A DNA stretch of 59,529 bases from Nitrospirota bacterium (GTDB lineage Bacteria; Nitrospirota; Nitrospiria; Nitrospirales; Nitrospiraceae), in NCBI GenBank assembly GCA_039932735.1, contig JBDTPK010000001.1, positions 1 to 59,529 on the forward strand. The letters run 5' to 3'. A program made the translations under genes and the position numbers. The notes under the pieces are model-generated. The model made no database searches, had not been told where the DNA came from, and was given only the letters and a program-made list of their open reading frames with translations. The first letter of the stretch is position 1, and the number at the start of each line of letters is the position of its first letter. Positions 10,436 through 59,529 of the stretch are shown in pieces.

Positions 10436-10540
10436 CTTACTCACAAGTTGGTAATTTGGAAAACACAACGTCTTCGTTGACCTTATTCTAAGCCGGTTTT
10501 GTTGGCGGTGCTGTCGTCTTAATTACTGACTACTGAGTAA
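10436..10540. repeat. Right copy of the ~105-bp imperfect inverted repeat (partner at 6..110)
   Basis: See the left copy. This copy lies 28 nt upstream of the first possible start of the NRPS operon. Confidence 0.85.
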
Positions 10541-10609
10541 TCACAGTGAGACATCCCTCGCGTCGAGTTGCTTCTACGAGCTACCTTGAGAAAGAACGGA
10601 CTCCTATCG

Positions 10610-13600
10610 ATGGGCGCTGAATACGAAACCTTCGTCGATCTTTTACAGTGGCGGGTACGTCTGAATCCGAAGCAACTGGCATATACCTTTTTGGTAGATG
10701 GTGAAACAGACGCACTTCACCTTACCTACGGGGAGTTGGATCGCCAGGCTCGGTCCATAGGTGCACGGCTGCAATCATTGGGCGGTATTGGGGAGCGCGC
10801 ACTCTTGCTGTATCCTCCCGGATTGGACTATATCGCCGCCTTTTTCGGCTGCTTGTACGCAGGAGTCATTGCCGTACCGGCCTATCCTCCGCAACGCAGG
10901 CGCACAATGCCCAGACTGCAAGCCATCCTGGAAGACTCGCAGGCCACGCTGGCGCTGACGACGACACAGATCCATGCAAGAGTCCAGCGTCTCTGCAATC
11001 AGGATCCCGGCTTGGATTATTTGCAAAGACCGCAATGGCTGAACACTGATGTGCCGGCACGGGATCTCGAAACAAGCTGGTGCAGGCCTGAGATCAACGG
11101 TCTGACGCTCGCGTTTCTTCAGTACACGTCAGGGTCGACAGGCATACCGAAGGGCGTCATGGTCAGCCACAGCAACCTTCTGGACAACGAGCGGATGATC
11201 ACGCAGGCATTCGGTCATACGGAAGGAACGACTGTGCTCGGATGGTTGCCCCTCTATCACGATATGGGATTGATCGGAAACGTTCTTCAACCGCTCTATC
11301 TCGGTGTGCCGTGCGTGCTCATGTCCCCTATTCACTTTCTCCAGAAGCCTTTCCGATGGCTATCCGCAATCTCGCGATATCGTGCGACGACCAGCGGAGG
11401 GCCGAATTTCGCCTATGACCTGTGTGTGCGTCAGACGACGCCCGAGCAGCGTGCGTCGTTGGATCTCAGTTGCTGGACGGTCGCGTTCAATGGAGCGGAA
11501 CCGATCCACGCCGGCACGCTCGATCGATTCACGGACGCGTTCAGCGCGTCCGGATTCCGTCGCGAGGCGTTTTATCCCTGCTACGGGTTGGCGGAGGGGA
11601 CCTTGCTGGTTTCCGGCGGAGACAGGACGACTCCTCCGGTGCTTCGAACGATCAAAAAGGCGGAATTGCAGCAGCACTGCGTCCTCGCTGCAACTGGAGC
11701 CGATAGAGAGACGCAGCAGTTGGTCGGGTGCGGGTATCCTCGATTTCACCAACAGATCCGCATCGTGAACCCCGAGTCGTTACGAATCTGTCCGGCAGGT
11801 CGTGTCGGAGAAGTGTGGGTGAAGGGCCCAAGTATAGCGGGGGGCTATTGGAATCGACCGGAAGAAACGTCCCAGACGTTCGAGGGCTACACCTCGGACA
11901 GCAGCGAGGGGCCGTTCCTTCGCACGGGTGACCTCGGGTTTGTGCAGGACGGCGAACTGTTCATCACCGGGCGTTTGAAAGACCTCATCATCATCCGTGG
12001 CCGTAATCATTATCCTCACGACATCGAACTGACGGTACAACTGAGTCATGCAAGTCTTCGACCGGAAGGCGGAGCCGCATTCTCTATCGAGCTGCAAGAA
12101 AAGGAATGGCTGGTCGTGGTCCATGAAGTGGAGTCCTGTCGTGTACCATTCGATGGCGAGACGGTAATAGCCGCGATTCGCCAGGCCGTCGCCGAATACC
12201 ATGAAGTGCAAGTCGCCGCGGTTGTCCTCATCAAGGCTGGGACTCTCCCCAAAACGTCGAGCGGAAAGGTCCAGCGGAGTCTGTGCCGCATGAAGTTTCT
12301 CGCCCGGGAATTCGATGTGATCGAGCAGTCCGTTTCGCCGCCTTCTCTTATTGGAGGTGGAAACGAAGCGGGTGAGCGGGCGGCCGTTGTGCAAGGGGAT
12401 GATCTTGAAAAGATCGTCGTCGAGATTTGGTCGAAAGTGTTGCAGCAGCCGACGATCCGGCCGCAGGACAATTTTTTTGCCATGGGCGGGGACTCATTGC
12501 GTGGCACGCAGGTGCTAGCCCGTTTGCAGGAAACCTGTCGGATCGATGTGCCATTGGACGCGCTCTTCGACTATCCGACCGCGGCTGAATTCGCCGCCCA
12601 TATCGAGACCCTCACGCCCCCTGCTGGCGCGTCCTCGGATGTCACCATCCACGCCGCGTCGCGGGAGGGGGCAGTGCCTCTATCGTTTGCGCAGGAACGG
12701 TTCTGGTTTCTCGAACAGCTGTCACCGGGAACTCCGTTCAACAATATTCCCATCGCCCTGCGGCTGAACGGCTCGCTCGATGTGGAGGTGCTTCGTCGAT
12801 CACTCGACGAAATCGTTCGACGCCATGAGATTCTCCGTGCCTCCTTCGTGCTGCACAACGGCCAACCGGCCCAGATTATTGCTCCCCGTCTCGACATTCC
12901 GTTTTCGACCGAAGACCTGAATCGTGCCTCCGAGTCAAGCCGGGAAGAGCAGCTCCAACGCCTGGTCGAAGAGGAAGCCCGCCGTCCGTTTGATTTCATG
13001 AGGGAGCCACTTCTTCGCCTTCGATTGTTCCGAATCAGCGAAACAGACCATGTGCTGTCGTTGACTGTCCACCATATCGTCGCGGACGGCTGGTCCATGG
13101 GTCTTCTCAGCCGGGAACTGGCGGCGTTGTATCACGCATTCATCGAGGGCCGTGTTTCTCCGTTGCCGGCTCTTCCGATCCAGTATCTCGATGTGGCGCT
13201 TCATCAGAGACAAGGCGTCCGAGAGGAAGAGTTCCAGCGGCAAGCGACCTACTGGCAGCAGCGTCTTGATCATGTTTCGAACATACTGAGTCTGCCGTTC
13301 GATTATCCCCGCCCGGAAGTACAGGGGTATCGAGGGGCGCGCCATGATTGGACGCTGGAGGCATCGGTCGTGCAGCAGTTGCGGACGGTGGGGTCTCGAC
13401 ATCGGACGACGTTGTTCATGACGCTGCTGGCAGCCTTCAACATCCTGTTGTTCCGCTATAGCGGCCAATCCGATTTCTGTGTCGGTACGCCGGTGGCCAA
13501 TCGCAACCGAATCGAGTGCGAACCGCTGATCGGCTGCTTCGTCAACACGGTGGCCTTGGGCGCCGATCTTTCCGGCAATCCGTCCCTTCCTGAGTTTCTC

Positions 13601-16333
13601 GATCAGGTTCGGGCGACCGTCCTGGGCGCGCAGGCGAACCAGGAGATTCCATTCGAACGATTAGTCGATGAGTTGAAGGTGGCCAGAGACTTGGGGCATA
13701 CACCGATTTTTCAAGTCATGTTCGTCCTGGAGGACCGTCTGTCGGATGTACGTTCCTTGGGAGATCTGGAGGCGTACAGGATGAATGTGAACACGCAGAC
13801 ATCCGTGTTCGACCTCACGTTGGAGATGGCGGAGAAAGCCGACGGAAGTCTGACGGCCGTGTTCGAATACAGTACCGATCTGTTTGCCGGCCCCACAATC
13901 GTTCGCATGGCCGAACATCTTCACGTCTTGCTGACTCAAATCGTCGCCTTCCCGGAGTCCCGCGTGAGCGAACTACCGATGCTGACGGCGAACGAACGCG
14001 CGTATGTCCTCGCAGACTGCAACGAGACGCAGGCGCTCTATCCATCTGAGTCTTGTCTGCATCAATTGGTTGAGGCACGGACAGCCGGCAGTCCGGACGC
14101 CGTGGCGCTGCTGTGCGAGGGGCGTTCGTATACCTATGCCTCCATTAACAGCAGAGCGAATCAACTCGCCCGATATTTACGGGCACAAGGGGTTGGTCCG
14201 GAGATTCCCGTGGCGCTGTGCGTGGATCGGTCCCTCGAAATGGTGGTCGGTCTCCTGGGAATCCTCAAGGCCGGTGCGGCCTATGTGCCCATGGATCCGG
14301 CCTACCCCAAGGAACGGAAGTCCGTCATTCTCAAGGATGTTCAGCCACGGCTGCTCTTGACGCGAGGGAAGTTTGCCGGAGGATTGCCGGATCAAGCGGC
14401 ACCGGTCTTCGCGCTCGATGAAGATTGGACGGTGGTGGCCCGCTTCCCGGACACCAATCTGCCGATTCTCACCAGCCCGGACAATTTGGCCTACATTCTC
14501 TATACCTCCGGGACGACCGGTCGGCCCAAGGGGACCGGCATCTCCCATCGGGCCTTGGTGAATCACGGCACCGCGATGGTGATGCAGTACGGCCTTGCTT
14601 CGACGGATCATGTGCTTCAGTTCGCGTCCGTCAGCTTCGATGTAGCCGCCGAAGAATGTTTCCCAACATGGATTGCGGGGGCGACGGTGGTGTTGCGTCC
14701 CAATGAGCCTGTGCCTGCATGTGCGGATTTTCACGCATTTCTTCGCGAGCAGGGTCTTACGGTACTGAACCTTCCGACGCCCTACTGGGCCGGATGGGTC
14801 GAGGAGCTCGAGCGAACCGGCCTGCCGCTTCCACCGTTGATCAGACTCGTCATCGTGGGGAGCGAGAAGGCGTTGCCCGACTGTCTGGTCCGCTGGCAAC
14901 GCGTGGCGGGAGGGCAGATTGTCTGGTGCAATTCGTATGGGCCGACGGAAGCCACGATTACCGCCAGCAGTTATGTGCCGGGACCCGAGATGGATTGGCG
15001 CACTGCAGTCACCGTGCCGATCGGACGACCGATTGCCAACGTCGAACTGTTTGTCCTCGATTCGCATCTTCACCCTGTTCCACTCGGTGTACCGGGTGAC
15101 CTCTTCATCGGAGGCGCGGGGCTCGCACGCGGGTATCACCGCATGCCGGCCCTCACTGCCGAGAAATTCATTCCGCATCCCTTCAGCCGGCGACGGGGGG
15201 AACGGTTGTATGGAACCGGTGATCGCGTCCGCCGTCGGCCGGACGGCCAGGTGGAGTTTCTGGGTCGGCGGGATGAACAGGTGAAGATCCGGGGGTTCCG
15301 TATCGAGCTCTCTGAAATTGAAGTCCATGCGCGCCAACACCCGCAGGTGAAGGAAGCCAGAGTGTTTTTGGAGTCGGGGGGGGCTCGCGGGTGGACCGCG
15401 CTCATCGGCGGCCTCAGCGAGGTCGAGCAAGACCGGATGCTACGGGATGTCGAGTGTTTGACGGCGGTGGAAGCGCAGTGGGTCTACGATTTGGAATCGG
15501 ATGCTGAGGAACGGAGGAAGACCGTGATCCAACGAAAGCCGGAGTTCGATGTGTACCTGAAGGTCAACAAAGGAGAATTCTTGACCCCTCCGCGTGAAAA
15601 CCAGCGCAACTGGCTCTTGCGCCGGGCGCTCGATGAGTTCTCGGACGATCTCGTCGCTCTCGACGCTATTTCCAAGCGGTTTGTTTCCGGATCCGACCGG
15701 GTCAGCATCGAACAGAGCTGGACGGGGAGTCGGGCGGAATATACGCCGTCTGAACTGATCATCGAGGGGCAACAAGTCATGCAGGATTGGGAGGCGCCTT
15801 TGATGAAGGCGATGGCGAACATCGCCACGGAATCCCGCGGCGATGTGCTCGAGGTCGGATTCGGAATGGGTATCTCAGCGTCCTACATTCAGGCCGGCCA
15901 GCCCCGCTCGCATACTATCATCGAGTGCAATCGTGAGGTGATGACCGCTTTTGCGGACTGGACCGGCCGCTACCCCGATCGGGACATCCGTCTAGTGCAA
16001 GGACGATGGCAGGAAGCGGTGGGGGCACTCTCTGAATTTGATGCCGTATTTTTCGATACGTACCCGGCGAGTGAAGCGGAATTCGAAGAGTCGGTGATCA
16101 ACAGCATCAACTTTGCCGAAGCATTCATTCCTGCGGCCGCGAAACTATTGCGACCCGGCGGTGTGTTTACCTATTACACGAATGAGATCGATTCCTTCAG
16201 CCGACGGCATCAACGCTTCCTGTTCCAGCACTTCAGCTCGTTCACGCTCAGCATCGTGCGCTCGCTCCTTCCGCCGGAGGATTGTCACTATTGGTGGGCG
16301 GACTCGATGGCTGTCGTCAAGGCGGTGAAGTGA
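10610..16333 (+). CDS. Loading/first-module megasynthase: FAAL - ACP - C - A (through motif A8) - GAMT/RMT2-like methyltransferase
   Basis: FAAL (YTSGSTGIPKGVMVSH...GDLGF...KTSSGKVQR), carrier (FFAMGGDSL), C (HHIVADGWS), and A (LYTSGTTGRPKG...SFDVAAEE...NSYGPTEAT...YGTGDRV...KIRGFRIELSEIE). After A8 comes a ~130-aa linker and then a GAMT-like domain. The ORF is open from TTG 10568; ATG 10610 is the likelier start. Confidence 0.9.
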   Translation: MGAEYETFVDLLQWRVRLNPKQLAYTFLVDGETDALHLTYGELDRQARSIGARLQSLGGIGERALLLYPPGLDYIAAFFGCLYAGVIAVPAYPPQRRRTMPRLQAILEDSQATLALTTTQIHARVQRLCNQDPGLDYLQRPQWLNTDVPARDLETSWCRPEINGLTLAFLQYTSGSTGIPKGVMVSHSNLLDNERMITQAFGHTEGTTVLGWLPLYHDMGLIGNVLQPLYLGVPCVLMSPIHFLQKPFRWLSAISRYRATTSGGPNFAYDLCVRQTTPEQRASLDLSCWTVAFNGAEPIHAGTLDRFTDAFSASGFRREAFYPCYGLAEGTLLVSGGDRTTPPVLRTIKKAELQQHCVLAATGADRETQQLVGCGYPRFHQQIRIVNPESLRICPAGRVGEVWVKGPSIAGGYWNRPEETSQTFEGYTSDSSEGPFLRTGDLGFVQDGELFITGRLKDLIIIRGRNHYPHDIELTVQLSHASLRPEGGAAFSIELQEKEWLVVVHEVESCRVPFDGETVIAAIRQAVAEYHEVQVAAVVLIKAGTLPKTSSGKVQRSLCRMKFLAREFDVIEQSVSPPSLIGGGNEAGERAAVVQGDDLEKIVVEIWSKVLQQPTIRPQDNFFAMGGDSLRGTQVLARLQETCRIDVPLDALFDYPTAAEFAAHIETLTPPAGASSDVTIHAASREGAVPLSFAQERFWFLEQLSPGTPFNNIPIALRLNGSLDVEVLRRSLDEIVRRHEILRASFVLHNGQPAQIIAPRLDIPFSTEDLNRASESSREEQLQRLVEEEARRPFDFMREPLLRLRLFRISETDHVLSLTVHHIVADGWSMGLLSRELAALYHAFIEGRVSPLPALPIQYLDVALHQRQGVREEEFQRQATYWQQRLDHVSNILSLPFDYPRPEVQGYRGARHDWTLEASVVQQLRTVGSRHRTTLFMTLLAAFNILLFRYSGQSDFCVGTPVANRNRIECEPLIGCFVNTVALGADLSGNPSLPEFLDQVRATVLGAQANQEIPFERLVDELKVARDLGHTPIFQVMFVLEDRLSDVRSLGDLEAYRMNVNTQTSVFDLTLEMAEKADGSLTAVFEYSTDLFAGPTIVRMAEHLHVLLTQIVAFPESRVSELPMLTANERAYVLADCNETQALYPSESCLHQLVEARTAGSPDAVALLCEGRSYTYASINSRANQLARYLRAQGVGPEIPVALCVDRSLEMVVGLLGILKAGAAYVPMDPAYPKERKSVILKDVQPRLLLTRGKFAGGLPDQAAPVFALDEDWTVVARFPDTNLPILTSPDNLAYILYTSGTTGRPKGTGISHRALVNHGTAMVMQYGLASTDHVLQFASVSFDVAAEECFPTWIAGATVVLRPNEPVPACADFHAFLREQGLTVLNLPTPYWAGWVEELERTGLPLPPLIRLVIVGSEKALPDCLVRWQRVAGGQIVWCNSYGPTEATITASSYVPGPEMDWRTAVTVPIGRPIANVELFVLDSHLHPVPLGVPGDLFIGGAGLARGYHRMPALTAEKFIPHPFSRRRGERLYGTGDRVRRRPDGQVEFLGRRDEQVKIRGFRIELSEIEVHARQHPQVKEARVFLESGGARGWTALIGGLSEVEQDRMLRDVECLTAVEAQWVYDLESDAEERRKTVIQRKPEFDVYLKVNKGEFLTPPRENQRNWLLRRALDEFSDDLVALDAISKRFVSGSDRVSIEQSWTGSRAEYTPSELIIEGQQVMQDWEAPLMKAMANIATESRGDVLEVGFGMGISASYIQAGQPRSHTIIECNREVMTAFADWTGRYPDRDIRLVQGRWQEAVGALSEFDAVFFDTYPASEAEFEESVINSINFAEAFIPAAAKLLRPGGVFTYYTNEIDSFSRRHQRFLFQHFSSFTLSIVRSLLPPEDCHYWWADSMAVVKAVK
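15755..16330 (+). other. GAMT/RMT2-like SAM methyltransferase domain embedded after A-domain motif A8
   Basis: Colinear with my recollection of guanidinoacetate N-methyltransferase: VMQDWEAPLMKAMA (GAMT VMERWETPYMHALA), VLEVGFGMGISAS (VLEVGFGMAIAAS), IIECN (same), FDAVFFDTYP (FDGILYDTYP), LLRPGGVFTYY (LLKPGGVLTYC), LLPPEDCHYW (LVPPADCRYY). Confidence 0.75.
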
Positions 16334-16334
16334 T

Positions 16335-16988
16335 ATGGAGGATCTTCTCCAGCGGATCGATCGTCTGACCGAACCGCAGCGGAAACTTCTCCGTCTCAGA
16401 CTAGGAGGCAGGAGAGAGGAACGGGAAAGCGAGTCTCGATTGGTGGGGTATGTCGTGCTTCGTGCGCATGACGCGTCGACCGTTCATGGTCTCCGGGGAT
16501 TTCTGGCCGAACGTTTGCCGGATTATATGATGCCGGCGACCTGGATCGTCCTCGATTCCTTCCCACTGACGTCTCGCGGAAAAGTGGACCATAAGGCTTT
16601 GCAGGGTATGGTTCAGCCGGCGCCGGACACGGCGGCTCGGCAGGGAGCACCTCGCAACGACTGCGAGCGAGCCATTGCGACGATTTGGGCAGAGGCGCTG
16701 GGTCTCCACGACGTCGGACTCCACGACAATTTCTTCGATCTGGGAGGGCATTCCCTTCTGTTGCCGAAGGTCCTTACGCAGGTACGGACCGTAACCCGGC
16801 GCGAGGTATCGATGGTCGATCTCTTTCGTTATCCGACGGTACAGGCATTGGCCGCATATATGGCGGCGGACCAGGTGCCGGTCGCCGAAGAGCCGGTGAT
16901 TCAACAGGTCAAGGATAAGCGGGAAGCGGGCGTGCGCCGGATGAAACAGCAACGACGCCAGAGACAAGAAGCCGTGAGGGGCAAATGA
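16335..16988 (+). CDS. Stand-alone A-domain C-terminal subdomain (motifs A9-A10) fused to a T domain
   Basis: RLVGYVV...LPDYMMPATWIVLDSFPLTSRGKVDHKAL (A9/A10 with the catalytic Lys), then FFDLGGHSLL (T). The ATG lies 1 nt after the upstream TGA, and the stop overlaps the PKS start (ATGA). Confidence 0.85.
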   Translation: MEDLLQRIDRLTEPQRKLLRLRLGGRREERESESRLVGYVVLRAHDASTVHGLRGFLAERLPDYMMPATWIVLDSFPLTSRGKVDHKALQGMVQPAPDTAARQGAPRNDCERAIATIWAEALGLHDVGLHDNFFDLGGHSLLLPKVLTQVRTVTRREVSMVDLFRYPTVQALAAYMAADQVPVAEEPVIQQVKDKREAGVRRMKQQRRQRQEAVRGK

Positions 16989-19900
16989 CGGCGGCCGCCG
17001 ATCGAGCGAGCGAGAGTCAAGCCGAAGACGGCTTGGATGTGGCCATCGTCGGGATGGCCGGCCGGTTTCCAGGTGCAAACAATCTGGATGTGTTCTGGCG
17101 CAATCTTCAGGGCGGTGTTGAGTCCGTCTCCACGCTCAGCCGGGAAGAACTGTTGGAGTCGGGAGTGGAGCCGAAGGTCTTGGATCGGACGAATTATGTC
17201 CGGGCTCGCGCGGTTCTGGCGGATGTCGATCTCTTCGATGCCAGGTTTTTCAACATGACTCCGAGAGAAGCCGACATCATGGACCCCCAGCAGCGGCTGT
17301 TTCTCGAATGTGCGTGGGAAACGCTGGAACGGGCGGGGTACGACCCGGAGCGATACTCCGGATCGATCGGCGTCTATGCGGGATCGAGCACCAGCGGGTA
17401 TCTCTTCAATTTATTTCCTCGCCGGGTACTCCTACAGTCGGCCGCCGACATGGCGGCGATGCTAGGCGTGGAGAAGGATTCGCTCTCGACGCGTGTGTCG
17501 TACAAGTTGAACCTTGAAGGGCCGAGTCTGGCGGTGCAAACGGCTTGTTCGACGTCTCTGGTCGCAGTCCACCTGGCGTGCCAGGCATTGCTGAGCGGGG
17601 AATGTGATATGGCCCTGGCGGGCGGCGTCTCCGTCAATGTGCCGCAGAAAGTGGGCTATCTCTATCAGGAGGGCGGTATCGCCTCGCCGGACGGTCATTG
17701 CCGCACCTTCGATGCCGGCGCGGAAGGCACCGTCGGCGGGAGCGGTGTGGGCCTCGTGTTGCTCAAGCGGTTGCAGGAGGCCGAAGCAGACGGCGATCAG
17801 ATCCTGGCTGTAATCAAGGGCTCCGCGATCAATAACGACGGGGCAGCCAAGGTCGGCTACACAGCACCCCGCATCGAAGGCCAGGCGAAAGTCATCAGAG
17901 CGGCGCACCTGACCGCCGGCGTGACGCCGGACTCAATCTCCTATGTCGAGGCTCACGGAACAGGTACACCGATGGGGGACCCGATTGAAGTGGCGGCGTT
18001 GACCCAGGCCTTTCGGGCCTCGACGGCCCGTACCGGATTCTGCGCGCTCGGATCAGTCAAGACCAATATCGGTCATCTGGATGCCGCGGCCGGCATCGCC
18101 GGTCTGATCAAGACGGTACTGGCGCTCTCCCATCGACAGATCCCGGCGAGTTTGCATTACGTCCGCCCCAATCCCGCCATCGATTTCCCCGCCACACCGT
18201 TTTATGTGAACAGGGCTCTGGCGGATTGGGCGCGTGGTGAGTCGCCGCGTCGTGCCGGCGTCAGCTCGTTCGGGCTCGGCGGCACGAATGCACACGTGGT
18301 GCTGGAAGAGGCGCCTGCGAATCACGAGGCGTCCGTGGTGGAGGACGAAACTCGCTGTCAGTTGCTTCTGTTGTCCGCCCGGTCGGAAGCGGCGTTGAGC
18401 GAAGCGACGAATAGGCTTTTGGCGCATTTCCATGAACATCCGAATCTCTGTCTTGCCGACGTCGCCCATACCCTTCAATCGGGTCGGAAAGCCTTCCCGT
18501 ATCGTCGCTGGCTGACGGCTGTGAATGCGGAGGAAGCCGGACGGCTGCTCTCTCACCCGATGGTTGCGGCAGCAACGGCCGGCCCTGTGACAGGAGAGCG
18601 GCGGGTCGCCTTCATGTTTTCCGGGCAGGGCTCGCAGTATCCGCACATGGGGCGATCGCTCTATCGGCAGCAGCCCGTGTTTCGGGATCATGTCGATCGG
18701 TGCGCGTCGATCTTGAGTCGGCATCTCGGTCGGGATATCCGGACGGTGCTGTTTCCGGTCTCTGCAACGGAACAGGACCTGATTCATCGCACCGTCCTGA
18801 CTCAGCCGGCATTGTTCGTGTTCGAATATGCCCTTGCGCAACTGTGGAAGACATGGGGGGTTCACCCGTATGCCATGATCGGTCATAGCATCGGGGAGTA
18901 CGTCGCGGCCTGCCTATCCGGAGTGTTTTCGCTTCAAGACGCGTTGGCCATCGTGGCGATGCGGGGGCGACTGATGCAGGATCTTCCTTCCGGAAGCATG
19001 CTGGCCGTTCCGCTCACGGAAGCAGGCGTGATGCCGTTTCTGCGCGGGAATCTGGATCTCGCCGCAGTCAATGCGCCTGCGCAGTGCGTGGTCTCCGGTT
19101 CCGATGAACAGATCGCTGCATTGGACCGCGAATTGGCGGCTCAGAACATACAAGGGCGGCGCCTCAAGACATCGCACGCGTTTCATTCATCCATGATGGA
19201 CTCGATTCTGAAACCCTTTGAGTCTTTTCTTGCCGGGATCGCGGTACAGGCCCCTGAGGTTCCCTGGGTGTCTAATGTGAGCGGCACGTGGATTCAACGC
19301 GAAGAAGCGATGGATCCGGCTTACTGGTCGCGCCATTTGCGCTCGACGGTGCGCTTTTCCGAGGGGGTTCGGACGTTGCTGGAACAGTCTGCGCCGGTGT
19401 TGTTGGAGATTGGTCCCGGACGTACGTTGCAGAACCTGGCCCGGCGGCATCCCACTCAGTCCAGCTTGTCCGCACTGGCTTCATTCAATGGACTCGACCA
19501 GACAGAATCCGGACAGGACGAAATGCCCGCCATCCTGACGACGCTCGGTTCTCTCTGGGGAGCCGGTGTTCGAGTGGACTGGACCGGTCTGCACAGCGGG
19601 TACCGGCGGCGACGGGTTGCTCTGCCGACCTATCCATTTGAGCGGCAACGTTATTGGGTGGAGCCTGTTCAGGTTGATCCAGCTCAGGCGCCGGCGTCCG
19701 GCGACAGGCAGGCCGATCTCTCGACGTGGTTCTACCAACCGTCGTGGAAACGGTCGGCGCTGGTCGGGAAGGGCGAACGATGTCCCGACGAACAGTGGCT
19801 TGTTTTTCTCGATGAGCAGCCGACCGGCACGGCACTCGTCAAGGATCTGGAACGACAAGGCCGGTCGGTCGTCAGGGTGTCGACCGGAAATGGATTTGAA

Positions 19901-21535: not shown

Positions 21536-21575
21536 GATCGACTGTGGCGAGACAGGGGCGAAGGAACGGATAGCG

Positions 21576-27129: not shown

Positions 27130-27152
27130 CCGTAACCACATAAGGAGGCACC

Positions 27153-27389
27153 ATGGGAAACGACGAACGGGAAGATACGACGGTCTACAAAGTGGTGATG
27201 AATCATGAAGAGCAATATTCCATCTGGCCGTCCTACCGGGACAATCCTCTCGGGTGGACGGATGCGGGGAAGACCGGTCTCAAGCAAGAGTGCTTGAACT
27301 ACATCAAGGAGGTGTGGACGGACATGCGGCCGTTGAGTTTGCGCAAGTGGATGGCTGAACAGGTGGACAAGACGATCCCGTCATGCTGA
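27153..27389 (+). CDS. MbtH-like protein
   Basis: [26 protein letters not shown]...[17 protein letters not shown] contains the three conserved Trp residues. An aaggagg RBS is present. Confidence 0.95.
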
Positions 27390-28135
27390 CCGCTGCGCGA
27401 TCACAATCGTGGTTTGTCACCCGCCGTCAGACGGCTGGGATACGGCTGTTGTGTTTCCCCTATGCAGGCGGAGGACCCGCAGTGTTTCGCAGTTGGCCGC
27501 AATATCTTTCGCCGGATATCGAGCTCTGTGCCGTTCAGTTGCCGGGGAGAGGGGCGCGAATGAATGATGCGTCAATCGGAGAACTCCGGCGTTTGGTCGC
27601 CGAGCTGGCGGAGGTCATCGAGCCGAGTCTCGATCGGCCGATCGCGCTGTTCGGACACAGCATCGGCGGGCTGATCGCATTCGAACTTGCGCGCGAGATA
27701 CGACGGCGCTATGGCGTCGAACCGGCGCATCTTTTCGTATCGGGCTGTCCCGCGCCTCAGATTCTCGACAATGATCCGCTCTTCGATATGCCGGAGGAGG
27801 AATTCCTCGATCGCATCCGGCGATTCAACGGGACCCCATGGGAAGTGCTGGAAAATCCGGAAATGATGCAACTCGTTCTCCCTGCGCTCCGTGCGGATTT
27901 CTCGTTGCGTGATACGTATGTGCATGCCGCGGAACCTCCCTTTCGCTGTGCGATCTCGGCCTTCGGCGGCATGGACGACGAGGGTGTGGGAACAGAGAAA
28001 CTTGAGCAATGGAGAGACCATACGTCCGATGTGTTTCAATTGTGTTTGTTTCAAGGGGACCATTTTTTTCTACGGACCGCGCAAGCCGCCGTGGTCGAAT
28101 CCGTCGCCGTGACATTGCAGCGGTATGGACATTGA
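27383..28135 (+). CDS. Type II (editing) thioesterase
   Basis: [23 protein letters not shown] (GxSxG) and GDHFFL. 250 aa. Confidence 0.9.
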
Positions 28136-28244
28136 TGAGGAGCATGCCGGACCGACAGGCCTCGGTACTCATCGCTCCCTGTCCAATTCGAACGGGTGGA
28201 CCGGTCCGGCGAGCAAGAATTCAGGATGATCCGGAGGAGCACAG

Positions 28245-35809: not shown

Positions 35810-35824
35810 AGGATTTACGCGAAC

Positions 35825-52600: not shown

Positions 52601-52697
52601 GGCGCATGCGCGGGATCCGTTTGCCGGCCCTCGCAAGATCGTCGTCGCGATGGGTGACATGATCAGCCACGCCTCGCTTCGCTCTGTCACCGTATAG
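43680..52697 (+). CDS. NRPS 3: C(DCL)-A-T-C(DCL-type, HHxxxDD)-A-T-C(LCL)-TauD
   Basis: C1 YYLSPLQQGLLFH...HHHILLDGWS; A1 code DLTKIGHVGK (Asp-like); T1 FFALGGDSI; C2 FHHILTDDWC; A2 code DIWELTADDK; T2 FFDLGGHSLL; C3 HHIAADAWS. A TauD domain follows C3 directly, with no A-T after it. Confidence 0.95.
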   Translation: MRNRPNIESMYYLSPLQQGLLFHRIADAEEDPYFYQHVYSLKGALRPDAFERAWQLVVERHPILRTAFIWEGVDRPMQVVRRQASLSIERYDWREALAVEHRQMLHSLLDRDRSAGWDFLVPPLMRLHLIRTTEEEWLFINSHHHILLDGWSMALVLKDMMAAYDATVQGRDHALPIPRPYRDYIGWLNRQDVQQAESYWREALKGFSTPTALSIEPPQDRGAKDSLPFAEQSLRISSERTSTLQSFSRQLRITMNTMIQGAWALLLHRYSGESDVLFGATVSGRPADLSGVADMVGLFINTVPIRVAVHSDMPLSSWLRGIQEQNSLLRQYEWTPLASIQRWGDNPGGRALFDSLVVFESYPEVEADGLPQALTVEPVFLHKNEPYTRTTGRNNYPMSLMVEPGRETKLIVSYMHRRFAHAAVSRLLRHFDTLLENMRAAPERPLREISLLPEAERRQLMAWNRSASPSPASDVCMHALIETQVQERPDATAVVTETDRLSYRELDRRANRLAHYLQERGVGPEKRVAICFERSLDLVIALLAVLKAGGAYVPLDPGFPKERLAHMVTDSGAVIVLSNSSQAEGVSGFKASLVLLDRQAREIAQRDDHRPTTEVTPQNLAYIIYTSGSTGQPKGVAVEHRQIVQYVRTVLDRLTLPAEASIAAVSTVAADLGNTALFGALCSGRPLHLLSADHGFDPNAMAAYMHDHAVDVLKIVPSHLNGLLSAEYPERVLPRRCLILGGEAVRQDLIQRVRALAPACAIVNHYGPTETTVGVLTHRVEEGVGGGGTGVPIGRPLPFTQVYVLDPGGRQVPIGMLGELYIGGGHVTRGYLGHPDLTAERFLPDVFGGETGSRLYRTGDRVRVRADGAIEFIGRVDNQVKVRGFRIELGEIDSHLRHEPSIAEAVTVVHETQDGVQQLVSYLVGASPIDTSAIRTRLARRLPDYMVPQAIVVLDAFPLTANGKLDRTAFPDPQQQHRSVGEASYVAPRNPIEAVLAAVWTDVLRIERVGVHDNFFALGGDSIRTLQVIARANQQGVKLTPKQLFEHQTVATAAAVAHWKDAATPDISPVPDASQSDRTPVHGRAAGESIQPIPPQPAAEKALPAFPLTGIEPERLLELRDDWDGIEDCYPLSPMQEGMLFHTLMNPGSGMYLMQQHYVWEGRMDRDAFGLAWQRVIDRHPILRTSFMWKDLDRPLQLVHRRVNARDVIKDVDCSHLGEDEQRSQMVKALEQELADGLAFTRAPLMRIRLVRQGAGRWTIVRSFHHILTDDWCFSLLMMDFMTHYEAFVEGRDLNVISPPPYREYIAWLQRQDLGAAQQFWKTELAGFTNPTPLGIDHVERTTPVTESSVGDVYMELSSEVSGQLRFLAQTYQLTPNTFVQGAWTLLLSRYSGEEDVLFGVTVAGRPPDLPGVEAIMGLFINTLPLRVTVPPEASLMGWLKDLLAANYRIRQYEYAPLVQIQQWSEVPPGQALFQSLLVFENAPKDPRLGEDHHDRVVSYEHDRVHTNYPVTVVGYPGDTMGVRLSYDRTLLEHGAVDRMLGHLKTLLEGMAAAPDAKLHELEMVGEAELRRVLTDWNDTDRVEECDERFPALFEAQVLRTPEAIAVQSGSHAFSYEALNRAGNRIAHALRALGTGPDTIVAVLDERGLALLSMIVGVLKAGGAYVPLDLHHPVERLAHVLDVSRTRVIVSRDVHAGLLAEVIALLPEERQPKILSVERMAMEDWPEENPCPINARSHLAYVIYTSGSTGLPKGAMVDCKGMLNHLTSKIPTLRLGAEDVVAQTASQCFDISVWQFLSPILCGARVQIVTDDVVRDPQRLLQEVANRNVTVLEVVPSLLSSMLDCSPLSLPHLRWLLPTGEALSPELCRRWFTRYPNIPLVNAYGPAECSDDVAIACIEHMPDEHVTRMPIGRPIDRVRLYIVDRHLEPVPAGVVGELCVGGAAVGRGYMHDPARTAEAFVPDPFCMEGSGRLYRTGDLARHRSDGMIEFVGRRDYQVKIRGFRIELSEIEARLSQHPDIARSVVLVREDQPGRRQLVAYAVTTQALTGEAIRMFVKQVLPDYMVPAAVVFLAALPLTPNGKIDRKALPVPEDDRTEERVEAPSTPTQDLVAGIWSEILGTERVGRHDQFFDLGGHSLLATQVISRVRAAFQIELPLRSLFDFPTVEGFAAAINRAAAQDIGASAPPIVPVARTERLPLSFAQQRLWFLAQMDPASGAYNLPFALKLQGALNCAALEKSFSELVRRHETLRTTFPSLDGEPSQVIVSPERFAFVTEDLTGLPDEDREASVMRCAEEEAHRPFALERDLPIRARLLKVQDDEHILLVTVHHIAADAWSLAVVTNEVAAVYRALAGASTQPDDGVSTALERILPELPVQYIDFSFWQREWLQGAVLEQEVGYWKQRLGSNPPQLALRTDRPRPEINTYRGGRHAFLVPKEVADALRTLSRRQGATVFMTLLSAFNVLLSRATGQTDILVGTDVANRNRHETEHLIGFFVNLLPLRTDVSGNPSFIEVLKRVREVALGAYAHQDLPFEKIVEALKLSRDLSRNPLVQVLFVLQNVPPPSLQLPDLNVESLEFEHEVSRFDLGLFMEETEDGLSGLWKFSRDLFEPETIAGMARNFVTLLGKIVAAPERGIDQLDMLSVEEKEARVMETKQREEGKLQRFKSIKPKTVALSQRTLVTSRLLSSDRSLPLMFMPAVDDVDLIDWAKENRSPLQRDLLKHGALLFRGFAARTVSDFEAVAQAVCPELFGEYGDLPREKSGRHVYGSTPYPPDKAILFHNESSHMHRWPQKQFFFCVEAAQEGGETPIVDCRAMYQALRPNIREALQSKQLMYVRNFTPGVDVSWQDFFRTSDRAVVEEMCAQNGMECIWVEKDSLRTRQFCPAVIEHPTTGEWVFFNQIQLHHVSCLEPAVRESLLSMLGMESIPRNVYFGDGSPIDDAIVAEIGELYERTAVRFHWQNGDLLMLDNMLVAHARDPFAGPRKIVVAMGDMISHASLRSVTV
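51747..52694 (+). other. C-terminally fused TauD/TfdA-type hydroxylase domain of NRPS 3
   Basis: LFHNESSH (HxE), GGETPIVDCR and LDNMLVAHARDPF. It is a paralog of the stand-alone enzyme at 28245..29282. Confidence 0.85.
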
Positions 52698-52705
52698 GAA
52701 GATTC

Positions 52706-58700: not shown

Positions 58701-59529
58701 ACATGATTCCTTCGCGCATCGTCTCCATACCGCATGTTCCCAGGACCTCAGGAGGGAAGGTCGATCGAACTGCACTGCCGACTCCCGAGTGGTCGAAAGG
58801 AGGTGTGGAAGCATACGCGGTCCCGCACACTCCGATGCAAATACAGCTCGCGAAGATATGGAGCGAGCTGCTTGGTGTCGAGAGGGTTGGAATCCATGAC
58901 AATTTTTTTGATCTGGGTGGGCATTCTCTTCTTGCCGTGCAACTGATCTCGCGTATTCAGAGAATGGCCGACCATCCTCTCTCGCTCATGGATCTGTTTC
59001 AGGCTCCCACCGTGGAGCGCCTGGCGACTATGGTGAAAAAGGAGCATCGGACGGTCGCGCCGGAGATTGTGACGTTACGTACCGGGGGCGGGCTTCCTCC
59101 AGTCTATTGTTTTGATCCGACCGGTACTCATGTGCAGGCCTATCGACCGCTTGCATCGTCTCTCGCAGCCGAACAGCCGGTTTACGGGCTCTCGTTGAAC
59201 CATATCTTTTCCCTGAAATGGCAAGAGGTCTCGTTGAATGCCATTGCTGAACAACATGCGCGTTTGATTCATGATCAACAGCCGCGAGGGCCGTATCGTC
59301 TTCTGGGATGGTCGAACGGAGGGGTGCTTGCATTTGCCACTGCGCGAGTGTTGGAGCGGAGAGGGGAGGCCGTCGATTTTCTGGGTGTATTGGATACTCA
59401 GCCGGATGTGGCAGTCTATGCCTCTGATAATCCAACGCCTGTAGACGAACTCGTGGCATATATTCGGCGGGATCGCGAAGAGGCGTTTAACTCGATTTCT
59501 GAGCGGGAACGTGACGCATTGCAACAGGA
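52706..59529 (+). CDS. NRPS 4 (3'-partial, absent from the ORF track): degenerate C-like domain - A - T - C(LCL) - A - T - TE
   Basis: I translated 2,274 codons from ATG 52706 (aggaag RBS) to the window end with no stop. The N-terminal C-like domain has LLDIPALCADRCS where HHxxxDG is expected. A1 code DLTKIGHIGK (Asp-like); T FFDLGGHSLL; C HHIVSDAWS; A2 code about DVEGIGAITK; T FFDLGGHSLL; TE LLGWSNGGVLAFA. Confidence 0.9.
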   Translation, partial: MQQEVEVQGFRLSPQQKRLWGFQQHGAVSYAQAVIRLDGVIDGSRLRTALRKVVARHQSLRTNFYREAGVKIPFQVISEQVEVPWRSLDLRCLEDSRHHESVEAELAAGRAASVSWECGSLLSATWCIFSPERSVLLLDIPALCADRCSLQNLASELARWYRDPDAEEIADEPVQYAQFSEWQNELLAEGEAEAGRGWWAKQQLASYPALTLPFERPSDAPGSCFSLHSIQQDVPQDVVVRLEQIAHDRQVSLEVVLYVCWQVWLARVTRQRDLVCWWRCHGRPYEELREGIGLFERWLPVYGLLDPQISAHDLISRAVKAHAHAIEWQEYFPSETNSAQLNALTDPIGFEYERIEGPCRIEQGTLTLERSILSTEPFKLRLTCSQRDRVLRLTWHYSLDRIPHESLQYFADQFTALLRSVPEHVNDPIEILDMVGMQERQRLIRTLNDTVRSYDGLAPLHRLFEGQAGRQPDAPALVAADCALTYAELNVRANRVAHGLIRRGVKRGDCVGLCLERSGEMIIGLLGVLKAGAAYVPVDPAHAAVRLVPQMTQSGATIVLAQSESTQLWPGFVGTVLGIGESSSVFATEPDTDPTLPMSLDDLAYVIYTSGSTGVPKGVAITHGNVVNYTRALCRQLDMQEPLQFATVSTLSADLGNTAIFPSLASGGCLHIITYETATDGQLFSAYLVRHPIDVLKIVPSHFKALMVTATGAHIFPRKYLIMGGERLSCELADQVTRQASCAVMNHYGPTETTIGALTCPVLQAEERRLSINVPIGRPIDNLEAYILDKRLETVPVGVPGELYLGGEGLARGYLGQPDRTAERFVPHLHTSQSGARLYRTGDVARFWPDGRIEFLGRVDHQVKIRGFRIELGEIEAALAQHPAVQDAVVTAHEDRHGEDNLAAYLVMRGPEADGRTIQDFLRSRLPDYMIPTMVMFLPAMPLSANGKVDRHALPEPDQGRGGERMFVTPRTATEEILAGLWSEVLKRDAVGVQDNFFDLGGHSLLATQVMSRLRQAFRVDLPLRTLFDAPSIAQLADVVDAARALGSSDESPAMPPVPRSGPIPLSFAQQRLWILAQLDPDSAAYNIPIALRVLGPLDTVALQQSFDEVVRRHEVLRTTFKAINGEPIQVITPSLIIPLPVVDLQHVSEHDRQAAAVRLATAEAQRPFDLQYGPLLRINALRLNPDEHVLLLTLHHIVSDAWSAHVLVREVTALYSAFIEGRPLPLSDLPIQYADFSQWQHAWLSGSVLERELGYWKDVLSGELPILHLPTDRPRPVIQSSHGAIETLVLSSEISAASKELSRRTSATIYMTLLTAWYLLLFRYTGQKDLIIGTPIANRTRREVENLIGFFVNTLAMRMQVDGYAPVSEIIANVREACLEAYAHQETPFEKLVEVLQPRRDVGRAPIFQVMFDLQNAPSSELDVQSLEFLPLEVDSRTAKFDLSMTVQELDHQFAISIEYNSDLFDAVTIQRMLRHYELLLNGMATSPETRVIDVPLLTQEERQHVIAINRASEPAPVVRCVHEMFEAQVGCTADATAVVWQEQSLSYRELNAKSNQLARFLREQGIGPEKRVGICMDRSLDMVVTLLGIMKAGGVYVPIDPRSPVHRRSALSLDAELDMLVVDSHAASGLDKLPVNRLSLDESRDEIARFGEQDLVSGATAHNAAYVIYTSGSTGKPKGVVISHRALSLHVVAAAARYGVRSSDRALQFAGLSFDVATEELFSTWLSGATVVLQPCRLFDSIPAFVDFVAQQHISIVGLPASYWQSWVAQMEETAAAAVPSNVRVLIVGNEPVSSVSLAVWQRHLGSRVRWLNAYGPTEATITATVYEPDLEQPLIEPRTVPIGRPMPTRSMYVLDAALQPVPMGISGELYLGGESLSRGYLHCPELTAEKFLPDFLGGVPGTRLYKTGDRVRLRPDGIIEFLGRLDDQVKLRGYRIELGEIEAELRQHPDVQEAVVVTLEDAETVQRLVAYVVYRNDGRSESGSLLRWLGESLPDYMIPSRIVSIPHVPRTSGGKVDRTALPTPEWSKGGVEAYAVPHTPMQIQLAKIWSELLGVERVGIHDNFFDLGGHSLLAVQLISRIQRMADHPLSLMDLFQAPTVERLATMVKKEHRTVAPEIVTLRTGGGLPPVYCFDPTGTHVQAYRPLASSLAAEQPVYGLSLNHIFSLKWQEVSLNAIAEQHARLIHDQQPRGPYRLLGWSNGGVLAFATARVLERRGEAVDFLGVLDTQPDVAVYASDNPTPVDELVAYIRRDREEAFNSISERERDALQQ
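52727..54010 (+). other. Catalytically degenerate condensation-superfamily domain (candidate interface domain)
   Basis: It has the length and flanking motifs of a C domain (RLSPQQKRLW..., VQYAQFSEWQ), but both His residues of the HHxxxDG motif are absent. It sits directly after the C-TauD fusion and before an Asp-like A domain. Confidence 0.6.
59078..59529 (+). other. Thioesterase (release) domain, truncated by the window end
   Basis: PPVYCFDPTG...YRLLGWSNGGVLAFA (GxSxG). The Asp/His region lies beyond the window. Confidence 0.75.

Follow-up and report, generated by a model that had tools for sequence, protein, structure and literature searches.

A predicted acylated beta-hydroxyaspartate siderophore locus of a Nitrospira-type bacterium, with a split adenylation domain ending in a GAMT-like methyltransferase

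Background

The subject of this report is a stretch of 59,529 nucleotides from a Nitrospirota bacterium of the family Nitrospiraceae (GenBank assembly GCA_039932735.1, contig JBDTPK010000001.1, positions 1 to 59,529 of the forward strand), referred to below, at its full length, as the window. It carries an assembly line of non-ribosomal peptide synthetases (NRPSs) and a polyketide synthase (PKS) which, in our judgement, is likely to make an acylated siderophore with beta-hydroxyaspartate (OHAsp) ligands, and which is accompanied by genes for an exporter, a candidate deacylase, a receptor and a regulator. The window as a whole probably contains the full siderophore system of a nitrite oxidiser of the Nitrospira type, regulated by iron and by signalling. 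By its gene content the cluster belongs functionally to the acylated OHAsp siderophores of NRPS origin (the cupriachelin, serobactin, variochelin and cyanochelin class), and linked TonB-dependent uptake genes, a trait of that class, were also found in the window.

The core of the corrugatin family runs, over residues 2-8, Dab-Ser-Dab/Orn-Ser-OHAsp-Dab-OHAsp, where Dab is 2,4-diaminobutyrate. Corrugatin, ornicorrugatin and histicorrugatin from Pseudomonas (MIBiG BGC0002422 and BGC0003174) are N-acylated linear peptides, as is predicted for the window product, with eight units against nine here; the corrugatin cluster also shares with the window an in-cluster supply of Dab. The core order predicted from the collinear specificity codes of the window would agree with this order, the check, with which the composition was in agreement, being one of composition only, against ornicorrugatin at m/z 1012.46 (PMC12971057). 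The ends of the chains differ: corrugatins start with octanoyl-beta-hydroxyhistidine, a third iron ligand, and do so without a PKS, whereas the window line starts with a methylated Arg-like residue and a PKS module and ends with an extra Arg-like residue. Neither a His-type code nor a His hydroxylase was found in the window. Since the window synthetases are about 37% identical to Pseudomonas NRPSs, the likeness to corrugatin appears to be a resemblance of products and not orthology.

The start of the chain is closest to that of variochelin, a photoreactive lipopeptide siderophore of Variovorax (cluster KT900023), in which a fatty-acylated Arg is likewise extended by one KS-AT-KR module to 4-acylamino-7-guanidino-3-hydroxy-heptanoate and OHAsp is likewise formed by TauD-type hydroxylation (PMC10999976). 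Variochelin differs in the use of methylmalonate, which leaves a methyl group at C2, in its two N-acetyl-N-hydroxy-Orn hydroxamates and in a TauD domain lying inside the PKS protein, whereas the window shows a malonyl-type AT domain, a methyltransferase (MT) domain resembling guanidinoacetate N-methyltransferase (GAMT) and no hydroxamate genes. The window also has an acylase gene in its operon, while PMC10999976 mentions neither 'acylase' nor 'FAAL'.

Two further systems share the logic of deacylation. Cyanochelin C of Myxacorys has, like the window, an NRPS line primed by a fatty acyl-AMP ligase (FAAL), two OHAsp residues (which serve as ligands in cyanochelin C), a last OHAsp module split between a C-TauD protein and the next open reading frame (ORF), and an adjacent transporter cassette (bioRxiv 10.64898/2026.07.24.740629). 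Its acylase CcsQ, an N-terminal nucleophile (Ntn) hydrolase associated with the cluster and nearer to cephalosporin or glutaryl-7-aminocephalosporanic acid (GL-7-ACA) acylases than to PvdQ, cleaves off the lipid. The peptide of cyanochelin C contains Val, methyloxazoline, D-Lys, beta-Ala and Gly, with no PKS unit, Dab or methylated Arg; ccsQ is transcribed divergently whereas the window acylase gene lies inside the operon, and the phyla differ. Pandorachelin of Pandoraea resembles the window in its FAAL-primed lipopeptide precursor, its TauD domain and its dedicated acylase, PdnM, which turns the precursor into a better chelator (PMC13592322). It differs in its diazeniumdiolate ligands (graminine, from GrbD/E, genes for which were not found here) and in that removal of the lipid sets off an O-to-N acyl shift, the compound being a cyclic depsipeptide.

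Pyoverdine (PvdL, PvdE, PvdH and PvdQ, with the regulatory set FpvA/FpvR/PvdS-FpvI) has in common with the window an acylated precursor, an exporter of family TIGR01194, a Dab transaminase, an MbtH protein, an Ntn acylase and a loop of extracytoplasmic function (ECF) sigma factor, anti-sigma factor and STN-type receptor. Its Glu-Tyr-Dab modules, a PvdQ orthologue and a match to the PvdL acyl ligase were not seen in the window. The cluster of cupriachelin, an acylated peptide siderophore of Cupriavidus necator, reportedly combines a stand-alone with an NRPS-fused Asp beta-hydroxylase, according to work by Reitz and colleagues from 2019. Cupriachelin contains a hydroxamate residue too, and is not known to have a PKS unit, Dab or an acylase.

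An initial annotation of this DNA, made from its letters alone, had proposed a siderophore that did not fit any described family. This was overstated, the corrugatin core, the variochelin start and the deacylases of cyanochelin C and pandorachelin all being precedents for parts of the system. Cluster-encoded deacylases of non-pyoverdine OHAsp siderophores were published in 2026 (PMC13592322; bioRxiv 10.64898/2026.07.24.740629), so that pyoverdine-style export and deacylation of other siderophores are already on record for other phyla, and lipid priming, OHAsp ligands, PvdE-type export, Ntn deacylases and signalling through an ECF sigma factor, FecR and a receptor are likewise established biology. 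All parts thus have precedents and the siderophore system is of an established type; what is new is a detailed look at such a cluster in Nitrospira and a side-chain methylation device that has not been characterised.

Gene organization of the locus

Gene families were assigned by Pfam and NCBIfam scans of the called genes in the window, and solved relatives were sought in the PDB. Every long ORF of the window lies on the plus strand according to the ORF listing. The assembly line is encoded by the following genes, in which C, A, T and E stand for condensation, adenylation, thiolation (carrier) and epimerization domains, TE for thioesterase and ACP for acyl carrier protein:

10568 or 10610 to 16333, plus strand: N1, FAAL-ACP-C-A(core, code DVENIGSITK)-MT by Pfam, the MT ending the protein
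16335 to 16988, plus strand: N2, remainder of the A sub-domain (motifs A9 and A10, with Lys517) and a carrier; Pfam AMP-binding_C and PP-binding, LPDYMMP ... SRGKVD
16985 to 21535, plus strand: PKS module KS-AT(malonyl)-KR-ACP, from Pfam and motifs
29279 to 35809, plus strand: N3, C-A(Dab)-T-C-A(Ser)-T, from domain scans and codes
35825 to 43690, plus strand: N4, C-A(Dab)-T-C-A(Ser)-T-E, from domain scans and codes, with E motif HHLVIDGVS
43680 to 52697, plus strand: N5, C-A(Asp)-T-C-A(Dab)-T-C-TauD, with an integrated beta-hydroxylase, from domain scans and codes
52706 to the window end at 59529, plus strand: N6, C*-A(Asp)-T-C-A(Arg-like)-T-TE, from domain scans and codes

N6 is cut by the window about 120 residues short of its end, its orthologues having 2385-2440 residues. 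The domain order that the initial annotation had read from FAAL to TE was recovered by domain scans in all synthetase ORFs, and the ATGA or short overlaps which it had listed at 16985, 23315, 24712, 27383, 29279 and 43680 were all found, the other junctions being gaps of 8-109 nt. Terminator-like hairpins occurred at chance frequency in a scan of the window and none lay in an intergenic gap. The overlaps, together with a terminator signal no higher than chance, bear out the view of an acyl-primed NRPS-PKS line in one co-directional, closely packed gene block. The start of the system had been placed too far to the right, at 10568: the iron-uptake island begins at about 963 and measures about 58 kb, with genes for TonB, an ECF sigma factor, FecR, ExbB, ExbD, a second TonB, a receptor and a PepSY-type reductase preceding N1. 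These uptake and regulation genes strengthened the siderophore reading, which was retained.

Lipid start and split adenylation domain

The loading domain of N1 matched PDB 7r7g best (E=7e-189), followed by the FAAL-like domain of saframycin Mx1, FadD23, FadD32 and FadD28, and it is followed in N1 by PF23024, an ACP and a C domain, as in lipid initiation. By these matches the loader is a genuine FAAL of the FadD32 or PKS-loading type. Solved PvdL chains matched N1 through the amino-acid A domain only, with no match to the acyl-ligase domain of PvdL.

The A domain of N1 is interrupted in an unusual manner. Its A8 motif (GRRDEQVKIRG) lies at residue 1566, the MT region (window 15380-16333) comes next as the C-terminus of N1, and motifs A9 and A10 are found on N2, so that the MT takes the position between A8 and A9. 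The N1/N2 junction reads TGA, one base, ATG. The usual layout of interrupted A domains, in which A9-A10 and the T domain follow on the same polypeptide behind an MT of the NRPS N-methylating type, is therefore not the one seen here: a stop codon stands after the MT. No Pfam MT family was matched in N1 in the initial scan. Against the PDB, the MT region matched rat and human GAMT (1xcj, E=3e-26; 3orh, E=1e-25), with the S-adenosylmethionine motif VLEVGFGM and the segments IIECN, WE and DTYP conserved in the alignment, and its homologues carry the newer Pfam family PF27704, GuanidinoAc_N-MeTrfase. The first reading of an A[MT] module with a methylated residue was thus right as to an MT placed after A8, while the MT is not a backbone N-methyltransferase but a GAMT-like one, which indicates side-chain methylation.

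A search among 1.84 billion representative proteins returned 1602 relatives of the MT, and the following counts refer to the listed subset of returned proteins that was analysed. In this subset, 120 of 122 long proteins had the MT at their extreme C-terminus. The A domains read in front of the MT numbered 97; 59 of them carried DSALIAEVW, a His code (PMC12283262), and nearly all others had acidic-pocket codes of the Arg or basic type. The nearest relatives of the window MT fall in the basic-type group. In one His-type example the next gene starts one base past the stop and encodes carrier (PP-binding) and thioesterase domains. An MT-terminated architecture was also seen at positions 8001-16902 of locus L041. 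The split after the MT is conserved in three orthologous loci (L002, L003 and L004). In L004 (9806-15052) N2 is fused to the PKS in one ORF of 1748 residues, the stop after the MT of N1 being retained, and the conserved break is therefore the one between MT and A sub-domain and not the one between N2 and PKS.

A strictly guanidino-specific MT was considered as well and dropped, since most family members come after His-type A domains. We infer instead that members of the family place the methyl group on a side-chain nitrogen of the amidine type, in Arg or in His, and in the present case on the guanidino group of a carrier-bound Arg; by analogy with GAMT, the methylated position may be the delta nitrogen. 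As judged from these proteins the device is widespread: cluster representatives number at least 120, and the A domains that go with it are nearly all of the His or Arg type. No description of a GAMT-like domain in an NRPS, or of this split architecture, was found in the searchable literature.

Extension modules and specificity codes

The PKS module shows the KS motifs TACS, HGTGT and NIGH, the AT motifs GHSIG and HAFH, and a KR domain without an LDD motif. Given the malonyl signature of the AT (GHSIG, HAFH), the polyketide unit is expected to be -CH(OH)-CH2-CO- without a C-methyl group.

Specificity codes were extracted by alignment of the A domains to GrsA-PheA, the control itself returning DAWTIAAICK. 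The codes were exactly those previously read by hand, namely DVENIGSITK, DIWELTADDK three times, DVWHISLIDK twice, DLTKIGHVGK, DLTKIGHIGK and DVEGIGAITK, although the number of amino-acid A domains is nine, in addition to the FAAL, and not eight as had been counted. None of the nine is Glu- or Tyr-like, in accordance with the reported absence of pyoverdine chromophore modules, and the absence of hydroxamate genes was likewise found to hold in the window and downstream of N6 orthologues.

DIWELTADDK, with an acidic pocket and identical in three modules, is a code which we take to be the Dab code of PvdL, and a Dab transaminase scoring above its NCBIfam cut-off is encoded in the same operon. A full-text literature search for this code and for the Arg-like, Ser and Asp codes returned nothing except PMC12283262, which gives the His code and consensus codes for Arg, Asp and OH-Orn. 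With no published occurrence of DIWELTADDK found in this search, the Dab assignment draws on the PvdL code together with the transaminase. The published Arg consensus, D[AV]ED[IVL]GA[VI][TD]K, is matched at 8 of 10 positions by DVENIGSITK and at 9 of 10 by DVEGIGAITK, and the two Asp codes of the window, DLTKIGH[VI]GK, nearly equal the published DLTKVGHVGK (PMC12283262). For the last residue, a cyclic N-hydroxy-Orn of the serobactin or cupriachelin type and graminine were considered and rejected, no hydroxylase or GrbD/E-like gene being present in the window or downstream of two orthologues; the last code matches the published OH-Orn code DVETLGGISK at 6 of 10 positions, poorer than its match to the Arg consensus.

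The C domains fell into an LCL-like group (N1_C, N3_C1, N4_C2, N5_C3 and N6_C2) and a DCL or dual-E/C-like group (N3_C2, N4_C1, N5_C1 and N5_C2). N5_C1 is placed after the E domain, as a DCL domain should be. The other three of its group have no E domain upstream, for which reason they are read as dual E/C domains, and Dab(2), Ser(3) and the first OHAsp would then be D-configured.

The first domain of N6 belongs to the Condensation superfamily with 155 bits, as against about 350 for the others, and shows IPALCADRC in place of HHxxxDG. The C-terminal C domain of N5, fused to TauD, looks normal (HHIAADA). From this motif loss and from the arrangement, the C* of N6 is classed as an interface-type domain. 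An integrated hydroxylase combined with an interface domain is said, again in the 2019 work of Reitz and colleagues, to be an arrangement typical of siderophore lines. The same C-TauD and next-ORF split yields the C-terminal OHAsp of cyanochelin C (bioRxiv 10.64898/2026.07.24.740629). Read collinearly, the codes uphold the backbone that had been proposed, an acyl chain on a methylated basic amino acid extended by C2 with a beta-hydroxyl, followed by Dab-Ser-Dab-D-Ser-OHAsp-Dab-OHAsp and a basic amino acid.

Accessory genes of the biosynthetic operon

Between the PKS gene and N3 lie six genes for precursor supply, export and tailoring:

21576 to 23318, plus strand: ABC exporter of the cyclic-peptide (PvdE/SyrD) subfamily, TIGR01194, 496 bits against a cut-off of 286
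23315 to 24715, plus strand: diaminobutyrate--2-oxoglutarate transaminase, class III (Dab supply), NF005393, 759 bits against 671
24712 to 27129, plus strand: acylase of the Ntn-hydrolase type bearing a membrane or signal segment at its N-terminus, a candidate for a deacylase in the periplasm, Pfam Penicil_amidase, E=1.6e-168
27153 to 27389, plus strand: MbtH-like protein, Pfam MbtH, E=4.4e-23
27383 to 28135, plus strand: type II thioesterase, Pfam Thioesterase, E=3e-51
28245 to 29282, plus strand: stand-alone TauD-family Fe(II)/2-oxoglutarate dioxygenase, candidate trans-acting Asp beta-hydroxylase, Pfam TauD, E=2e-47

The PvdE-like exporter and the PvdH-like Dab transaminase of the initial annotation both scored above their cut-offs; these matches are at the level of subfamilies (PvdE and SyrD are both members of TIGR01194) and are not specific to pyoverdine. 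MbtH and the type II thioesterase were found by Pfam where they had been reported. The label of a PvdQ-like acylase fared less well. The protein is full-length, with the beta chain starting at S263 (SNAW), and its nearest relatives in the PDB are D-succinylase (5e-58), GL-7-ACA acylase (3.5e-40) and penicillin G acylase, PvdQ giving a local match of about 1e-9; with the PvdQ equivalog NF051460 it scored 49 bits against a cut-off of 950. At most it is possibly a functional analogue of PvdQ, not an orthologue. Its gene shares 4 nt with that of the Dab transaminase and is retained at that place in five orthologous clusters. Penicillin-amidase homologues lie less than 10 kb from PKS homologues, at 26-28% identity, in a Lysobacter metagenome-assembled genome (MAG; L016), in Ruminiclostridium hungatei (L023) and in a Bacillota MAG (L024), a related ABC exporter being present as well in the first. 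In other phyla, too, lipid-primed PKS-NRPS clusters may therefore often include an Ntn acylase.

The stand-alone TauD, which the earlier gene list did not include, is kept in all orthologous loci. It is 45% identical to the TauD domain of N5, and the HxE...H iron site is intact in both (HNE...H in the stand-alone protein). With two Asp codes, a stand-alone and a fused TauD and the C-TauD / interface-A-T split, TauD-type Asp beta-hydroxylases are paired with Asp modules here, and the stand-alone enzyme would likely hydroxylate the first Asp, on N5-T1. No member of the PvdM/N/O/P or PvdA/PvdF families was found in the Pfam and NCBIfam scans of window genes or downstream of N6 orthologues; these families are taken to be absent because the window proteins matched no families beyond those described here.

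Uptake and signalling genes

The region to the left of N1 contains the following features:

856 to 874, plus strand: Fur-box-like site, weak candidate, with 13/19 matches to GATAATGATAATCATTATC, one of 5 window sites with at most 6 mismatches, upstream of the first TonB and sigma factor genes
963 to 2057, plus strand: TonB-like protein, Pfam TonB_C, E=2.7e-14
2063 to 2599, plus strand: ECF sigma factor of the FecI/PvdS type, Pfam Sigma70_r2 and Sigma70_r4_2
2627 to 2653, plus strand: ECF-type promoter motif GTCAGG-N15-GCGTCA upstream of fecR, exact match
2710 to 3756, plus strand: FecR-type anti-sigma factor or signal transducer, Pfam FecR and DUF4880
3833 to 4264, plus strand: ExbB, Pfam MotA_ExbB, E=1.2e-26
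4254 to 4628, plus strand: ExbD, Pfam ExbD, E=2e-20
4625 to 5470, plus strand: TonB, Pfam TonB_C, E=3.9e-17
5485 to 6009, plus strand: 174-residue protein travelling with TonB, with a signal-peptide-like hydrophobic N-terminus (read by eye)
6149 to 6175, plus strand: ECF-type promoter motif GTCAGG-N15-GCGTCT upstream of the receptor gene, exact match
6581 to 9073, plus strand: TonB-dependent siderophore receptor, its N-terminus formed by an STN signalling domain, from Pfam matches to STN, Plug and beta-barrel, TIGR01783 332.7 bits against 223.5
9119 to 10324, plus strand: PepSY_TM membrane protein, candidate ferric-siderophore reductase, Pfam PepSY_TM, E=2.9e-63
10411 to 10437, plus strand: ECF-type promoter motif GTCAGG-N15-GCGTCT upstream of N1, exact match

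The sole PDB relative of the PepSY_TM protein is 7ABW (full-length match, E=5.9e-11), which we take to be the siderophore reductase FoxB. Exact copies of GTCAGG-N15-GCGTC(T/A) numbered three in the window, against 0.07 expected from shuffles, and all three are intergenic, on the plus strand and upstream of fecR, the receptor gene and N1; a relaxed motif gave no further plus-strand site in the window. The layout resembles that of ECF-type promoters with a CGTC -10 element, and together with the trio of sigma factor, FecR and STN receptor it suggests cell-surface signalling that ties receptor occupancy to biosynthesis. Upstream of N1 orthologues the relaxed motif was found once in L004 and twice in L002, from Nitrospira sp. 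T9 (GTGAGG / GTACGG ... CGTCT, same spacing). The two T9 sites, GTACGG-N15-CCGTCT at 3726-3752 and 3847-3873, are separated by about 121 bp and belong to a stretch in which the promoter region is repeated in tandem almost perfectly.

The protein at 5485-6009 matched no family in either Pfam or NCBIfam and shares 51% identity with the product of L040 18206-18667, also from Nitrospira sp. T9, a gene that adjoins TonB-ExbD-ExbB beside the cluster, where a homologue of the TonB at 4625-5470 (43% identity) is likewise found; it thus appears as a conserved partner of the TonB system to which no family is assigned. A small ORF at 6126-6443 (plus strand), located at the promoter motif of 6149 and before the receptor gene, encodes a zinc ribbon (CxCG...CxxCG) that falls just short of the cut-off of Pfam Zn_ribbon_Com (22.6 bits against 22.9, E=7e-5), the family of Com, a translational activator of Mu. 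The ORF may have arisen by chance, or its small product might regulate expression of the receptor.

Conservation among Nitrospira

The closest genomic relatives of the PKS protein were from Nitrospira sp. T9 (82%), a MAG fragment labelled 'Nitrosospira' (82%), a MAG labelled Nitrospira defluvii (62%) and two more Nitrospira-type contigs. The T9 cluster lies on contigs JBQKUP010000019 and JBQKUP010000036. From a tblastn table and the gene contexts of N6 orthologues, synteny was established in at least five Nitrospira lineages for N1, N2, the PKS, the ABC exporter, the transaminase, the acylase, MbtH, the type II thioesterase, TauD and N3-N6, with identities of 56-90%. The receptor-PepSY pair lies directly upstream in L004 as well, at 81% and 75% identity, while in Nitrospira sp. 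T9 TonB, ExbD, ExbB and the homologue of the 5485-6009 protein flank the far end of the cluster. Downstream of N6 orthologues, neither an Orn/Lys N-hydroxylase gene nor a graminine gene was found.

NRPS and NRPS-PKS clusters have been noted, though not analysed, in activated-sludge Nitrospira MAGs (PMC9765116), and large-scale mining in 2026 reported clusters for non-ribosomal peptide metallophores in 15 of 307 Nitrospirota genomes (PMC12971057). In a 1.23-Mb contig of ERZ25039485 (L039), a gene at 17301-18038 for a methyltransferase-like protein of 245 residues overlaps the stop of the N6 orthologue and has weak matches to Methyltransf_4 and Methyltransf_25; it is missing from the equivalent place in strain T9, and the window ends before that point.

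Predicted product and proposed pathway

From the sequence we infer substrates, methyl position, stereochemistry, deacylation, iron binding and regulation as follows. The FAAL would load a fatty acid, which the starter C domain would join to an Arg-like residue, methylated, most likely at a guanidino nitrogen, by the GAMT-like domain within the split A domain. The malonyl-specific KS-AT-KR module would extend this to a 4-acylamino-3-hydroxy-7-(methylguanidino)heptanoyl unit, to which the four NRPSs N3-N6 would add Dab-Ser-Dab-D-Ser-Asp-Dab-Asp and a final Arg-like residue before the TE frees the chain. Both Asp residues would be beta-hydroxylated on their carriers, one by the stand-alone TauD and the other by the TauD fused to N5 with the help of the interface domain of N6, while the transaminase would provide Dab, and MbtH and the type II thioesterase would assist the line. 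The predicted product is acyl-[4-amino-7-(N-methylguanidino)-3-hydroxyheptanoyl]-Dab-Ser-Dab-D-Ser-OHAsp-Dab-OHAsp-Arg, for which a computed [M+H]+ of 1125.561 and [M+2H]2+ of 563.284 are obtained in the deacylated linear form; its Dab residues may close to cyclic amidines, as in corrugatins. Each such ring, or a cyclic release, would lower the mass by 18.011, and lack of the methyl group by 14.016; forms acylated with C8-C16 chains are computed at [M+2H]2+ 626.34-682.40, and Fe(III) adducts at +52.91.

By analogy, the PvdE/SyrD-type ABC pump would move the acylated precursor to the periplasm, where the membrane-anchored Ntn acylase would cleave off the fatty acid as in pyoverdine, pandorachelin and cyanochelin C. 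The STN-type TonB-dependent receptor would take the ferric complex back in, with energy from the neighbouring TonB-ExbB-ExbD, and the FoxB-like PepSY_TM protein would free the iron by reduction. Receptor occupancy would be signalled through FecR to the ECF sigma factor and on to the three promoters of fecR, the receptor gene and the biosynthetic operon. The fullest form of this proposal is that some Nitrospira make their own deacylated, cationic OHAsp siderophore with an undescribed start, a gamma-amino-beta-hydroxy acid derived from side-chain N-methyl-Arg, by means of a split-A/GAMT-like device on two translationally coupled ORFs. It is put forward tentatively, its chance being in our estimate somewhat short of even.

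Alternative explanations

A number of observations weigh against a deacylated iron chelator under such control. The predicted obvious oxygen donors are four, from two OHAsp residues, and no genes for hydroxamate, catechol, OH-His or graminine ligands were found in the window or downstream of orthologues; the predicted peptide would carry a net positive charge, an uncommon trait in ferric chelators. Syringomycin-type toxins are built from the same palette of Ser, Dab, Arg and beta-OH-Asp and leave the cell through a SyrD-type pump. The acylase, by sequence, is distant from every acylase known to act on a siderophore. As regards regulation, the Fur-like site at 856-874 is a weak candidate only, the promoter motif was defined post hoc, after the data had been seen, and its relaxed form was not found upstream of the N1 orthologue in L003. 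According to published genome analyses, siderophore synthesis is lacking in N. marina and in Ca. N. alkalitolerans, which probably pirate the siderophores of others (bioRxiv 10.1101/2020.07.02.185504; 10.1101/2020.03.05.977850); this makes the trait one restricted to certain lineages.

The working siderophore could instead be the amphiphilic acylated peptide itself, in the manner of marinobactin, cupriachelin or variochelin, with the acylase not an obligatory maturase but serving later in remodelling, recycling after uptake, a switch between membrane-bound and diffusible forms, or the cleavage of other N-acyl compounds such as acyl-homoserine lactones. Many OHAsp siderophores primed by a FAAL or a starter C domain do remain acylated (PMC10999976; bioRxiv 10.64898/2026.07.24.740629), deacylation of marinobactin is optional and its acylases also cleave acyl-homoserine lactones (bioRxiv 10.64898/2026.07.24.740629), and pandorachelin is found in both forms with different functions (PMC13592322). 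The relationship of the window acylase to D-succinylase, GL-7-ACA and penicillin acylases, and not to PvdQ, is also compatible with such roles. However, the acylase gene is embedded in the operon by its 4-nt overlap with the Dab transaminase gene, is kept in position in the five orthologous clusters and lies near a PvdE/SyrD-type pump, as deacylases do in pyoverdine-type logic, and we consider an acylated working form unlikely.

A mainly cationic membrane-active lipopeptide of the syringomycin or polymyxin kind, an antibiotic or surfactant, next to an unrelated iron-uptake locus, would account for three predicted Dab and two Arg-like residues behind an N-terminal lipid and for the residue palette and pump shared with syringomycin (SyrD, subfamily TIGR01194); antimicrobial or surfactant activity is, moreover, documented for variochelins and pandorachelin B (PMC10999976, PMC13592322). 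Against an unrelated neighbour, fecR, the receptor gene and N1 are each preceded by a copy of one ECF-type promoter motif. Two lineages have the receptor-PepSY pair immediately ahead of the cluster, and a third has TonB/ExbBD beside it. Besides, the C-TauD / interface-A-T split matches the OHAsp arrangement of cyanochelin C (bioRxiv 10.64898/2026.07.24.740629), and a deacylase in the operon would abolish the membrane activity of a lipopeptide. A product of this kind appears improbable. A metallophore mainly for another metal, for instance copper or molybdenum, both needed by nitrite oxidisers, or a chelator with a dual purpose, is given still less credit and judged very improbable. Two bidentate alpha-hydroxy-carboxylate ligands with Dab amine or amidine nitrogens could suit Cu(II), and a gene for a third classical Fe(III) ligand is missing, but the receptor scored above the cut-off for the TonB-dependent siderophore receptor family, a homologue of a FoxB-type reductase adjoins it, and cyanochelin C binds iron through two OHAsp residues (bioRxiv 10.64898/2026.07.24.740629).

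Implications

Nitrite oxidation by Nitrospira is heavily iron-dependent, and the point of interest of the present locus lies in a conserved siderophore system within a guild thought reliant on foreign siderophores. If the proposal of an own, OHAsp-based siderophore is true, a self-contained system in several Nitrospira lineages would alter models of iron competition in nitrifying communities such as those of wastewater plants, soils and biofilters, and the cluster supplies a concrete molecule, with computed masses, to look for. The split A domain ending in a GAMT-like MT is recurrent and may represent a general route to side-chain N-methylated Arg or His units.

Minor features of the window

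Two ORFs lie to the left of the iron-uptake block. The first, at 75-590 (plus strand, 171 residues), has a low-complexity, basic composition, was matched by neither Pfam nor NCBIfam and is doubtful as a gene. The second, a short ORF at 586-762 (plus strand) beginning MKRTRRNHGAAFKAQVAFAAVKGEQTLVELATQFGVHPT and cut by a stop, stands at the left edge of the block; its product looks, by eye, like what we take to be the N-terminal helix-turn-helix of an IS3-family transposase OrfA, a reading to which Pfam, giving no match, lends no support. The record nearest to the window, P0005, is a fragment of a MAG labelled 'Nitrospirota bacterium', with 99% identity. The G+C content changes from about 0.53 at the left of the window to 0.58-0.63 in the synthetase genes.

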